This document shows positions 55,701 to 61,700 of a stretch of DNA of 64,000 nt, piece by piece. Location of the stretch: NCBI RefSeq assembly GCF_044324875.1, contig NZ_CP172185.1, one strand, 5' to 3'. The position numbers were made by a program. Numbering within the stretch: position 1 is the first letter of the stretch; every line of letters begins with the position of its first letter. The stretch comes from Escherichia coli (GTDB lineage: Bacteria > Pseudomonadota > Gammaproteobacteria > Enterobacterales > Enterobacteriaceae).

Positions 55701-58700
55701 GAGGCCTGGCAAGGCGATGGCCTGGTCCATTTTTCCAGGTGGACGCCTTCCCGTAAACCAGCATCGTCTGATGCTCGCCCTTCTTCCGATGACACGCCTT
55801 TGTCGGGTGGATGTTCTGATACCAGGAAGGCTTCAGAAAAAAAGCCGGGTGAAGCCGCTGTTCTCTGGATCAAGCGTGGTGATGTGGAAGCGCTGCAGAA
55901 AGCCCGGAACAGAGCCAGTTATCTCGTGAAATATGAGACGAAGCAGCATGACGGTTCCGGGCAACGTAATTATGGTTGCAGTCGTGGGCCGGGGCGTCTG
56001 CTGGATGGCAGGTGAGCCCTGTAAAACGACATCCGGTGCCTGAGCTTATGCTACAGGACGTTGGCTGACGCCCTTAGCTCGTTTTCTGAAAAAGTCGTCC
56101 TGAAGTCATGCAACGGTATTTTTCTCTGCTTTCGCTCCTGGAAACACTCCGTCGGTAAAACCTTACTGTCCTGCTTAATGATGTGAACCGAAGTCAACGG
56201 AGATCATTCATTCTGAACCTGCATCCGGTGTTCTGTCCCTTGTCGGTTACCTGATCTTCCCGTTCTGCCGCGGTTTTTCACTTATTCCATCAACCCCATA
56301 CGCAAGCCATAACACGTCAGCGCATCCACGGGCAGGACGCGTTGTGGGCTGCGTATAACGGAACATATCTTATGAATGCTATCCCTTATTTCGACTATAG
56401 CATGGCGCCCTTCTGGCCATCTTATCAGAACAAAATCATCGGCGTTCTCAACCGTGTGTTGCGCGAGCAGTCCGGCTCCAGGATACGGCGGATCCTGCTT
56501 CGTCTGCCGGGGGAACATGGCAACATCTTCAGCGACAGAAAAACCTGGTTCGGTATGGCCTTTATCGAAACCGTCAGTGCGCTGATGAATGCAACCCCCG
56601 GACGCGACCTCTGCTGGCTCCTGACCCGTCATCCTGAAAAACCGGAATACCACGTGGTGCTGTGCGTCAGACAGGAATATTTCGACGGCCCTGAGCTGGA
56701 CCGGTTGATTCTGGATGCCTGGAGCAACGTACTGGGCTTCGCGTCACCGGGTGAAGCAGCACCGTACCAGAAACAGATAACCCGGGATGTGGTGCTGGAC
56801 AGTTGTTCACCGGACTGCGAAGAGAGACTCAAAGAGCTGATATGGGCGTTCAGTGATTTCGCCCGCGATCGTCGTGGTGTGCGCGATCCGGAAGCCCGTT
56901 ACCTCGCCGGTAATCCCTGGTATCCCGTAGCAGGCCAGCTCTGAAAGCTCAGCTCAGCAGATTCACCCGCATTTGCCCAACATTCATAAATCTCACAGAG
57001 GACATTCTGACCATGTTGACCTCAATGACAGGTCACGACAGCGTATTGCTGCGTGCCGACGATCCCCTGATCGACATGAACTACATCACCAGCTTCACTG
57101 GTATGACCGACAAATGGTTTTACAAGCTGATCAGTGAAGGCCATTTCCCTAAACCCATCAAACTGGGGCGCAGCAGCCGCTGGTACAAAAGTGAAGTGGA
57201 GCAGTGGATGCAGCAGCGAATTGAGGAATCACGAGGAGCAGCAGCATGAAACGTGTTGTAATGCCAGTACGCTGGCAATGTGCGAAATGCCGGCGCTGGT
57301 ATTGTGGAAATCAGCCCTGTCCCTGGTGCTGGCGCTGACAACTCCCGCTCATCTTTCTGCTGGCACCCTCTGGCCAGCCAACTGTTTGTCATCATTTCCT
57401 GACTGATTCGTCATTCCCTTCGTCCCGCCAGTCACTGGTGTTTGTATCGTACCGTGCCGGTGTCGATGTGCGCTTTCCGTGTGTCTGGTCTGCACCGGCT
57501 TAACAAAATTCAACGGGGATAAAATAGTGCAAATAACCGAAGCCTTACTTTCAGCGCCGGGGGAAATCCGGCGTTTTGTTCAGCAGGCGGTGGACCACTG
57601 GCCAAATCTGTTGGCATTTCACTTCACGCTCCATTCGGCAGAAGGAAACATCAACGGACAACAGATTCATGCATTCTGTACTTCCTTTTACCGACAGGTG
57701 CACGAGCGTATTACTGAACGTAATCACACGGCCAGTCCAGCACCACCGGTGGTATTACGCTGGTTGCGGGAACAACATGGAGGAGCAACAATGCGATGCC
57801 TGTTGCTGCTCAGCCAGACGAGCATTTGCCATCCACGGGTCAGTGCCACGGTTGATGAAGAATGTTCGCAACGGGTGGATTTATTGCAACAGACATGGCG
57901 GGTGATAAGTGCTGACGGACAATGCCGGGTGGAAAGGTGTTTTCAGGCTGCCCGGGGTGATACATCCGGCCAGTATATTGCGTTAAAAACAGTTGCATTG
58001 TCTCTGGGGTTACCGGTTGTGACCGGTATTACCCATCGCCCGGTACAGCGCTGTACATTGATTACAGCTCAGTGAACAGCGCTGTTGTGCAGTCAACGAG
58101 GTTTTCTGTCTTTTCGTCGGTCATTCAGCATCATTAAACGGGTCTCTGCCTCTTTCTGTTCCTGTGGTGTCACTTCCCCGCACGGCTGACCGTTCAGGTT
58201 GTAACGGGCGCCACCTGCTATTAACGCACGGTAATAGCACGGAGACTGCACATAAGACGCCACTGCTGCATGTAATGTACCAGCGCCAAACGCCAGTTCT
58301 CGGATGGCGATATCCTGTATCAGGTCGTCAGGTATCCCCACTTTAAGTGGTTTTGTTTTTTTCCCGGTTGAATGACTCAGGCCAGAGTTCCACAAGACGA
58401 ATAATGCGCTTACGGTTTTTGCTCTGGCGTTTTGTCATGTCGCCACGGTGTTTTATCAGCAGGTTTCTGTTTATCGTTCAACTGTGGTATCTGGTCACCG
58501 GCCTTCATTTTGTATGCTGTGTCCGTTTTATCCTGCAGCGGCGTTGCCGGTGATTTACTGAAAATACCCTGCGGTTTACGGTTAATGGTCAGAGTTACCA
58601 TCAATTTTGTTACCTCGCGCTGTCAATGGAAGTAGTACCTCATCCGATATCTGAAAATGTTTTCCGGTGGATGTTACAGCGAATTTCATGTAAGACATGT

Positions 58701-61700
58701 TGTTGTCGGTATTGTTCAGTACTGTGCGTTGTGAGCGTATTCGTTATCAGACAGAGGGGCAGGGAACAAACGTCAGAGGTTAAGGATATCCGGGAACAAA
58801 TGGCGTAAACGGACATCTCAGTGCCTGAGAAACAGTACAGGTCAGGCCATCATGGCCTGCAAACAGAGCCCTGGCGACCCCGTGGCCGAAAACGAAACAA
58901 TAACCCGCGCGCAGTGCGAGGAATCCGGATGTGAAGCAATCAGCAGGTAATATTAATGGCAGGACCAGCAGGTTCTTTAAACAAACGAACATGCTGTAAT
59001 TGATATTTTGCTTATTGTATTTTCTTTTTAGTTATTAAATTAATTTATTTACGAAAAATTTTCTGCAGATACAGGATGGGAATTCAGGGTGTCATCACGC
59101 CTTATGATGACACCCTTCCCCTGGTTGTGGAAAACCGAAGGATATATCAGGTTCAGCAACAAAATCAGTGAGCTGAAAGATACCAGTCCCCCAGCTTCAG
59201 CAGCTTTCACGTAAACATAAACAGGGCTCAATGAATATCTGATTGCTCCAGTTACCTTCTTTAATTCGTTCCAGCAAAACATTTCCTGCTTCCAGACCAA
59301 TTTTCCTGTGAGGAACGGCCATTGTTGTTAATGATGGTTGGCAAACTTTGCTGACGTCACTGTCACCAAATCCTACTACGGCGAGCTCGTCTGGAACTTT
59401 GATCCGTCTTCGTTGACATTCATAGAGAACACCGCAGGCTAACTCATCTGACACACATACCAGGGCATCCAGTTCCGGCCATGCGAGCAAAAATTCCGGT
59501 AGTTGTGATGCTCCGGTGGAAAAAACAGGTGGCAGAGCAGCGTTAATAACACGGTTGGGAGACATATGATGGCGTAACATAGCTTTATACCATCCCTGTA
59601 AATGCTGCTGAAAGATCCACTGTTCCTGGTTAGCGCATAGCAAACCGATATTCTGATAACCACGTTGTACCAGCATATCCGTCAGCTCGAACATTGCTGC
59701 AACATTATCAATACCAATGTTGATATCTATCGGATCAGTACGAATGGCACCGATTTCTATAACAGGAATCGAGGCATTTTTGAGCAAGTGACGCACGGTA
59801 CTATTATGCTCAACACTAAGCAAAATTGCTGCAGCGATATTAGAAGCCAGCAGGGTTTCCAGCAGTTTTTCTTCTTGTTCCAGACGATGGCGTGACTCAG
59901 CCAGGATTATTTGATACCCCGCTGGTTGTAGCACATGTTGCAGCCCGGCAAACATTTCCGTGCATCCCGCTTCAGCCAGGTTTGGCACGACCATTGCGAT
60001 CGTGTGTGAAGATGCCGATGCCAGTGCGCTTGCAGTGAGGTTGGGCATATACCCTAATTCATTAACTGCGGCTTCAATCTTCTCCCTCAATTTATCTGAA
60101 ACTTGTTCGGGAGTGCGTAACGCTCTGGATACAGTCATTGTGCCAACTCCCGCGAGTTGCGCGACATCAGCAATAGTGACTTTACCTGTACTACGACGTT
60201 TTCGGGTTATTGCCATACAAAATCCTGCTCAGCGACTACATATGGAGATCTTTTATTACTTATCATCAACGGCTTCCTGCACTGCCAGTAGCAGAGTATA
60301 CCTCTTAATATCTGCCATAAGTCTGGATTTAATCAGTGAAATCTATTTTGATAGCGCTATCACAAATTCGAACAATACCTCCTGATAGCGCTATCTTTGT
60401 GATATTGATCGCAGATATACCGTCGTTACTTGAATACATTCTGGTCATATAAATAAGAAATTAGGGGGTGGGAGTGCTTAATATCTGGCTTTCTGATTCA
60501 ACAATCGCATTACGAAAGAATGCCGCAACCTGGCAGCAGGCATTAGATATCTGTGCCAGACCGTTACTGGATGCAGAGATAATTACGACGGATTATCTCA
60601 GTGCGATAAAGACACAACATGAAAAACTGGGGCCTTATTATGTCCTGGCACCCGGGCTGGCCATGCCGCATGCCCGACCAGAAGAAGGGGCAAAAGGATT
60701 AGGTTTATCATTATTAAAACTTGAAGAAGGTGTCAGTTTTCATACAGAGGAATTTGATCCTGTAGATGTTATCATTTTACTTGCCGCACCAGACAAACAC
60801 AGTCATATCGAAATGATATCTGCACTGGCTGAGTTATTCTCCAGCGAAAAAGATTTACATGAATTGCATCAGGCTCGCAATGTGGAGGAAATAAAAAAGA
60901 TAATTTCACGGTTCTGATTACATTATAAATTCAGTCTTTTCACAACATTGCGCCGTTGCGTGATGGGACTTCTTCAACTTAAAATGGTGAATATAATGAA
61001 AATTATGGCTATTTGTGGCTCAGGGCTTGGTAGTAGTTTTATGGTCGAAATGAATATTAAAAAAGTTCTGAAAAAAATGGATATAGAGGCGGAAGTGGAA
61101 CATTCCGATCTCTCATCAGCAACGCCAGGGGCTGCCGATTTATTTGTGATGGCCAAAGATATTGCTGCCAGTGCCAGCGTACCGGAAAGTCAGTTGGTGG
61201 TTATCAACAACATCATTGATATTAATGAACTCGAAACGCAACTGCGTAACTGGTTAGCAAAACAATAACCTTAATTGAAGCGAGGTGGATATGTTTATCC
61301 TTGAAACGCTGAATTTTGTTGTTGATATACTTAAAGTGCCCGCGATACTGGTCGGCTTGATTGCCTTAATTGGTCTGGTTGCCCAGAAAAAATCTTTTTC
61401 AGATGTTGTTAAAGGTACAATTAAAACTATTCTCGGCTTTATTGTACTGGGCGGTGGTGCCACTGTTTTGGTTGGTTCGTTAAATCCTCTTGGGAGTATG
61501 TTTGAACATGCCTTTAATATTCAGGGCATCATTCCGAATAATGAGGCTATTGTTTCTATTGCGCTGGAAAAATATGGCGCATCGACGGCCCTTATTATGG
61601 CATTTGGTATGGTGGCGAATATTATTGTTGCCCGCTTTACCCGCCTTAAATATATCTTCCTGACCGGACACCACACATTTTACATGGCCTGCATGATTGG

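Follow-up and report, generated by a model that had tools for sequence, protein, structure and literature searches.

FinO of F-like plasmids and FopA of pCol1B9 are small FinO-domain proteins carried by mobile elements, and mobile-element FinO-domain proteins usually act with an RNA encoded nearby (PMC9977716). ProQ, the chromosomal global RNA chaperone of E. coli and Salmonella, carries the same domain at its N-terminus, followed by a linker and a Tudor-like C-terminal domain. Phage- and plasmid-derived chromosomal copies receive no more than a general mention in a review of the family (PMC9977716), and our literature searches for a FinO protein borne by an island or by a phage-inducible chromosomal island (PICI) found no specific paper. 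A second described group, the YagK/YfjJ proteins (PF11726, inovirus Gp2 family), consists of Rep-like proteins with a HUH motif from CP4-type cryptic prophages, and a third, the F4 (K88)-family fimbrial subunits, is encoded upstream of S6-peptidase (SPATE) autotransporters. We analysed the interval 57479-59196 of a 64,000-nucleotide stretch of an E. coli chromosome (contig NZ_CP172185.1; hereafter the window), located between alpA and a gene for a LacI-family regulator. It contains a gene of the UCP030791 family, a ProQ/FinO-family pseudogene and the remnant of a fimbrial gene.

We read this interval, with a probability of about 85%, as the place where a backbone module that recurs in E. coli genomic islands ends on its right-hand side and meets cargo (LacI regulator, phosphotransferase system (PTS) and transketolase genes). 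At this junction of backbone and cargo lie an intact conserved gene and the remnants of two others, one of which has left its upstream DNA orphaned. The genes of the module follow the order YagK/YfjJ, a hypothetical protein of about 190 amino acids (aa), AlpA, sometimes a small open reading frame (ORF), UCP030791, and then a convergent ProQ/FinO gene, whose own upstream DNA measures about 150-390 bp. This module recurs in many E. coli islands, with downstream cargo that differs from island to island: H-NS and a dGTPase-family gene, a type VI secretion system (T6SS), IS1 or dnd genes are found beyond it in other islands, pap-type fimbrial genes in L015 and T6SS sheath genes in L018. Among the sampled islands, the whole module (56350-58750) is conserved at 90-98%, and homology to other islands ends at 58990. 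The arrangement found in the window is itself widespread. The 2 kb at 57300-59300 are 100% identical in many complete E. coli chromosomes, mainly from avian and extra-intestinal pathogenic strains, and 327 genomes show at least 99% identity across 58080-59196. APEC strain BEN2908 (NZ_LR740776.1), for instance, has the same sequence at the junction. In the RefSeq records of the identical chromosomes, the interval is flanked by alpA on one side and by the LacI-family regulator, PTS IIA/IIB/IIC and transketolase on the other, with ireA and insertion sequence (IS) fragments farther upstream.

The ORF listing comprises a 198-aa ORF (57479..58075, + strand) and a convergent 100-aa ORF (58093..58395, - strand), whose stop codons are separated by 17 bp. 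Only short ORFs of 41-83 aa are present in 58400-59196, the longest (59049..59300, - strand) overlapping the LacI gene. The original prediction, made from the nucleotide sequence, had placed a cysteine-rich 198-aa ORF, a weak convergent 100-aa ORF and an ORF-poor stretch at these same positions. Its statement that none of them has an assigned function was overstated: RefSeq already names 57527..58075 and 58093..58601, and a fimbrial remnant could be matched at 58987-59181. It had also suggested that the interval might hold degraded island genes or small RNAs, and had named beforehand homology to pseudogenised known genes as the result that would contradict a region without explanation. Such homology was found, to a ProQ/FinO gene (PF04352, E=6e-16) and to a decayed F4-family fimbrial gene, and the suggestion of degraded island genes is thereby vindicated.

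The intact gene encodes a 182-aa protein of the UCP030791 family (PF27752) and extends from 57527 to 58075 on the + strand, with a GTG start preceded by a GGGGA Shine-Dalgarno sequence 8 nt upstream; start and name are those of RefSeq. The 198-aa ORF corresponds to this gene over-extended by 16 codons, since the RefSeq GTG start at 57527 agrees with the N-termini of homologues. The identical protein (WP_001167444.1) appears in RefSeq either as "hypothetical protein" or as "UCP030791 family putative phage-derived protein". For homologues that are 85-97% identical, the assignment to PF27752 (PIRSF030791) is precomputed, and some close homologues have been named "inovirus Gp2 family protein" by NCBI. 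With 57 clusters at 50% identity in a collection of 1.8 billion representatives, the family is small. Nothing specific on it was found in literature searches.

It could be argued that the 198-/182-aa ORF is a chance ORF without product. The window sequence indeed has no match in Pfam, PHROG or PADLOC (the Pfam library used did not include the PF27752 model), and its composition is unusual, with 4% cysteine. Against this stand the assignment of PF27752 to close homologues, the conservation of the family down to 25-35% identity in other contexts and a conserved synteny that includes AlpA and a Rep-like gene: homologues as distant as 27-35% identity still have both as neighbours, sometimes together with a Zn_ribbon_11 gene, but have no FinO gene. 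The ratio of nonsynonymous to synonymous substitution rates (dN/dS) between alleles of the 182-aa gene is 0.21-0.45, and an AlphaFold model based on the alignment of the family reaches high confidence (pLDDT 88.4, pTM 0.83), with an alpha/beta fold resembling an RNA recognition motif (RRM). These conservation data refute a chance origin, which we regard as next to impossible, and the 182-aa gene is a real gene. Its cysteine content is as first noted (9 residues in the 198-aa ORF, or 4.5%, and 7 in the actual 182-aa protein) but is not a meaningful trait, the family alignment having no invariant or nearly invariant cysteine, histidine or tyrosine column.

The UCP030791 protein appears to be a distant paralogue or derivative, devoid of the HUH motif, of the YagK/YfjJ Rep-like protein of the island. 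A bona fide YagK/YfjJ gene is present at 55284..56015 on the + strand (PF11726, E=4e-37). Comparison of the UCP030791 family with YagK/YfjJ of the same module by hhalign gave a probability of 89% (E=2e-6, 113 columns), and PF11726 was weakly matched by 7 of 21 diverse members of the family (best E=4e-4). The two proteins appear to have similar folds and are encoded in the same module. They differ in that the HYH of the YagK HUH motif aligns to MRC in the 182-aa protein, the family consensus being R-M-x-L-L, and in that no near-invariant tyrosine is present, hence the separate Pfam family. Because the HUH histidines and a conserved tyrosine are missing, the UCP030791 protein is probably non-catalytic. 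It might bind DNA or play an accessory part when the island is maintained or excised by its AlpA/Rep-like functions.

Several observations concern the neighbours of this gene in the module. In the YagK/YfjJ protein encoded at 55284-56015 (+), the HUH motif is intact (HYHVILLL), and a YLVKY motif recalls the tyrosines of rolling-circle Rep proteins. The core of the 200-aa gene at 56342-56944 (+) resembles YagK (YHVVLCV...LDAWSNVL; BLASTP against YagK, E=0.003), and the module may thus hold three diverged copies of one fold, namely YagK/YfjJ, the 200-aa gene and UCP030791. A paralogy of this middle gene with UCP030791 received no support from profile comparison (0.8% probability). A 30-codon mini-ORF (MKRVVMPVRWQCAKCRRWYCGNQPCPWCWR, followed by a stop) is located at 57246-57338 (+), its start overlapping the alpA stop (ATGA), and displays a CxxC...CxxC pattern. 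It is fused in frame to the UCP030791 protein in some alleles (P0124, 250 aa), and DUF7828/Zn_ribbon_11 genes occupy its position in distant relatives of the module. The mini-ORF was considered as a zinc ribbon and gave no match to Zn_ribbon_11 (PF11682). A PADLOC scan of the module proteins produced no defence-system assignment; the AlpA protein had one weak match.

The first gene remnant is a ProQ/FinO-family pseudogene at 58093..58604 on the - strand (PF04352), which RefSeq annotates as "ProQ/FINO family protein, frameshifted" at 58093..58601; the "frameshifted" label is found in strains KOr019, E5 and 181.1. It consists of a 64-aa ORF (58410..58604) corresponding to an N-terminal extension, a short middle frame, and the 100-aa ORF (58093..58395), which covers most of the FinO domain. 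The 100-aa fragment matches PF04352 well above the curated threshold (58.7 bits for a gathering score of 27), and the NCBIfam FinO and ProQ models match it weakly. An intact allele retrieves the solved structures of ProQ (5nb9, E=1.4e-12) and FinO (1dvo, E=3e-11), as well as NMB1681 and RocC. Three-frame translation and alignment to intact alleles of 159, 168 and 171 aa (L015, L004 and L017) revealed exactly two frame-breaking lesions, which interrupt the reading frame of the whole domain. The first is a 2-bp deletion at 58438..58439 (-), where CGACATATGAC of the intact alleles is replaced by CGAC--ATGAC, leading to a stop at 58410-58412. The second, inside the FinO domain, is a 1-bp insertion in a run of seven A at 58356..58362 (-; seven T on the + strand), where GGG-AAAAACC has become GGGAAAAAAAC. 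The same lesions occur in independently sequenced genomes and are therefore not sequencing errors.

When conceptually repaired, the window allele displays substitutions that were not seen in the five alleles set beside it, of which three are intact and two split or broken. TLR to TLH and YDL to YNL are unique to it, and SPR to SPC is shared only with the split allele of L006. By alignment to 5nb9, they fall at the equivalents of ProQ R58 (H), D82 (N) and R69 (C), respectively. Of the conserved RNA-binding residues, the equivalents of ProQ K35, Y70 and R80 are retained and those of R58 and D82 are replaced. In ProQ, R58A abolishes or impairs RNA binding and D82E impairs it, while D82N partly retains it (PMC7192607).

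One may ask whether the FinO gene is still alive, its domain being translated from an internal ATG (58436-58438) and the frame being restored at the A7 run by slippage or frameshifting. The internal ATG is indeed kept, 114-aa forms starting there are frequent and annotated as genes, and the second lesion falls in a homopolymeric run. However, the excess of 1 nt would require a +1 or -2 correction, and a run of seven A is short for efficient slippage. The intact alleles have five A and no slippery site, so that the change is a mutation, as opposed to a conserved signal for recoding. A living gene is further argued against by the substitutions at conserved RNA-binding positions and by its treatment as a pseudogene in RefSeq, and we consider this scenario very improbable. 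The FinO copy of the window is thus best described as a dead, non-functional pseudogene of the family, as judged from its sequence.

Two inverted repeats were observed in and next to this pseudogene. A terminator-like hairpin at 58338-58362 (+), formed by CCACTTTAAGTGG and followed by TTTTGTTTTTTT, is antisense to the FinO coding sequence; it lies about 260 nt downstream of the UCP030791 stop, and its T-run is the complement of the A-run with the frameshift insertion. The other (58045-58085) has arms of 17 nt, 88% complementary, with a 7-nt loop, and spans the UCP030791 stop in the gap that separates the two convergent genes. The palindrome ACAGCGCTGT occurs twice in this repeat, which is not followed by a T-run on either strand and which sister islands conserve only in part.

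A protein search on this FinO clade returned 261 relatives, almost all of which come from E. coli, Shigella, Salmonella and Citrobacter, with a full length of 158-185 aa; phage and plasmid relatives are only about 25-42% identical. The clade occurs in two genomic contexts. In the first (55-65% identity over the full length), the FinO gene is part of an operon in the order AlpA, AntA, Bro-N, DUF4222, primase/helicase (DUF927, D5_N or AAA_25), single-stranded DNA-binding protein (SSB), FinO and PerC, and follows the SSB gene, where present, by 36-50 bp. From their domain content, we infer that these are primase-carrying, PICI- or P4-satellite-like integrative elements. The second context is that of the window, with the FinO gene convergent to UCP030791 in the AlpA/YagK/YfjJ island module. 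The window gene shares the protein clade and the association with AlpA, but it is solitary, is preceded by about 150-390 bp of non-coding DNA and has the opposite orientation to the AlpA genes. Allele states, taken from a small sample of RefSeq annotations and protein-collection look-ups, are diverse: island-type alleles are intact in H33, H34, H50 and H52 (RefSeq) and in L015 and L017 (protein collection), split into a 57-aa ORF and a 114-aa FinO-domain ORF in H45 and H47, represented only by an annotated 114-aa ORF in H40, and pseudogenes in H5, H13, H22, H32 and H38. An intact allele is found, for example, in strain 1105 (NZ_CP023388.1), and 870 E. coli genomes carry the gene in one state or another.

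The island protein aligns with the N-terminal FinO domain of ProQ over about 115 residues. It differs from ProQ in having neither the linker nor the Tudor-like domain and in possessing a variable basic N-terminal extension of about 45-60 residues. With FinO and FopA it shares the domain, the small size and a place on a mobile element, and binding to hairpin-plus-tail RNA would be expected (PMC9977716). The window gene departs from them by its location in a chromosomal island, convergent to UCP030791, by an identity of about 40% to plasmid FinO-family proteins, and by its two frameshifts.

Upstream of the FinO start codon, two non-coding segments can be distinguished on the - strand by alignments and blastn. 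A leader of about 150 nt (58605..58752), directly adjacent to the start codon, is common to all island-type copies; it contains GAGG (Shine-Dalgarno) and a possible ACTTC/GAGGT pairing that would mask it. The distal segment (58753..58990) is common to only a subset of sister islands. It is present in 681 genomes, mostly unannotated, and carries a 30-bp insertion between 9-bp direct repeats (GGGAACAAA, 58762-58770 and 58792-58800). Origin of 58605-58990 as the SSB/primase remnant of a satellite-type element was rejected, blastn and tblastx matching the FinO coding part only. The small ORFs that are annotated ahead of the FinO gene in sister islands were scanned against Pfam and PHROG without informative result.

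The same DNA could instead be the gene of a small or antisense RNA with which the island FinO protein would work, in the way that FinO is paired with FinP and FopA with Inc. The habit of mobile-element FinO-domain proteins of acting with a neighbouring RNA, the presence of the 150-nt leader in all island-type copies, and a weak terminator-like hairpin at 58920-58904 on the - strand would fit with such an RNA. Our searches point the other way. Rfam 15 gave no gathering-score match in 57000-59400, with only two chance matches to eukaryotic snoRNAs at E<=5, and found neither a known small RNA nor a P1/P4-type C4/CI antisense RNA upstream of the FinO gene. Folding was no better than that of shuffled sequences, for the leader on both strands (z = 0.64 and 0.35) or for the distal segment (z = 0.71). 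The consensus scan detected no sigma-70-like site on the - strand, and terminator-like sites (5) were within the shuffled expectation (2.6 +/- 1.6). The leader is not more conserved than the neighbouring genes, and most of the region is deleted in one sister island (L003). RNAalifold on five alleles, an alignment too shallow to assess covariation, showed mostly invariant pairs, with compensatory changes in 2 of 30 pairs and a covariation term of -1.08 kcal/mol. Rfam, folding and consensus scans together thus provided no candidate RNA partner, FinP- or Inc-like, for the island protein. We consider an RNA gene at 58605-58990 improbable, and the suggestion of small RNAs in this interval was not supported by these searches.

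The second remnant is a decayed 5′ fragment, about 65 codons long, of an F4-family fimbrial subunit gene at 58987..59181 on the + strand, identified by blastn, tblastn and frame-by-frame reading. In blastn, the AT-rich segment 58991-59182 aligns at 70-86% DNA identity with the 5′ ends of genes that carry the annotation "fimbrial" or "F4 family fimbrial subunit"; in other E. coli chromosomes and in plasmids, these genes precede those for S6-peptidase autotransporters. A single-sequence tblastn search with a 294-aa fimbrial protein gave 53% identity over its first 76 residues (residues 3-76, with internal gaps; E=3e-16), and the remaining approximately 220 codons are missing from the window. Successive frames read HAVIDILLIVFSF, a stop, LLN, a second stop and FIYEKFSADTGWEF in one frame, TPYDDTLP in a second, and PWLWKTEGYIRFSNKISELKD back in the first. 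The remnant, which carries no RefSeq annotation, therefore lacks a start codon, is interrupted by two in-frame stops and shifts frame at least twice, and contains no complete ORF covering signal peptide and pilin domain. It is truncated beside the 3′ end of the LacI gene, about 15 bp before the LacI stop codon (59197-59199). These matches identify the segment as what is left of the 5′ part of a fimbrial subunit gene of the F4 type. Within it, where the frame shifts, we noticed a perfect 12-nt inverted repeat with a 7-nt loop (AGGGTGTCATCA / TGATGACACCCT, 59086-59116), which looks like the product of a template-switch type mutation. The consensus scan also listed a terminator-like hairpin at 59171..59196 (-), directly after the LacI-family stop codon; it is one of the five sites whose number is within the shuffled expectation.

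Some points weigh against our reading of the interval or of its parts. The roughly 380 bp at 58605-58986 were called leader and upstream DNA from two properties only, their position and their conservation in sister islands, and no promoter for the FinO gene, such as a sigma-70-like site on the - strand, was found in the consensus scan. The broken FinO allele cannot be distinguished from intact ones by dN/dS (0.18-0.34 versus 0.13-0.46). The 182-aa protein of the window does not match PF11726 (YagK_YfjJ_C) at E<=1, and the link between UCP030791 and YagK/YfjJ is built on the 89% profile-profile probability and a generic fold. Finally, the roles proposed for UCP030791 and for the intact FinO protein are deduced from family and context. 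Every component of the interval falls in an already defined family and the two main ones are already annotated publicly. No new kind of element is needed for any part of the interval, which results from ordinary island decay.

Other observations were made in the surroundings of the module. An AT-rich block (30-42% GC) lies at 52200-55200, between ireA and the YagK/YfjJ gene, and its counterpart in a near-identical genome (L001) contains frameshifted transposase pseudogenes of the IS256 and IS3 families. Elsewhere in the window, Rfam matches above the gathering score correspond to the C0719 small RNA (11126-11347, - strand, 294 bits) and to a JUMPstart element (31152-31190, + strand, 53.6 bits), the latter typical of the leaders of capsule and lipopolysaccharide operons. 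Anti-phage defence cargo is frequent beside the AlpA/Rep-like/UCP030791 module or the satellite-type FinO gene (metagenome contigs L023/L024 and L025; L006, L010 and L012), and includes a reverse transcriptase with an AAA_15/21 ATPase, dnd, GmrSD, and an RVT_1 gene beside a PerC gene. Such backbones therefore seem to flank defence hotspots.

In sister islands, the intact FinO protein is probably an RNA chaperone like FinO, FopA and ProQ, which would bind hairpin-plus-tail RNA and tune genes of the element, judging from family membership. The intact protein, the 150-nt leader and the tail-to-tail overlap with the UCP030791 transcript might form a FinOP-like RNA switch for the AlpA/Rep-like excision or replication module, with YagK/YfjJ and its UCP030791 paralogue devoid of HUH as the Rep-like part; we consider this proposal unlikely. 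If it were true, the module would be controlled in this way in a widespread family of E. coli pathogenicity and defence islands, and the window would hold a dead copy of the switch. More generally, FinO-domain proteins of this clade are frequent in E. coli chromosomes, where their genes lie in satellite-like elements and, as a secondary location, in an island backbone, and may be intact, split or broken. Members of the UCP030791 family, for their part, invariably accompany AlpA and a Rep-like gene, with variable cargo for virulence or defence alongside. The copy present in the window matters little by itself, but the FinO clade and the UCP030791 derivative could guide work on the regulation of these islands.

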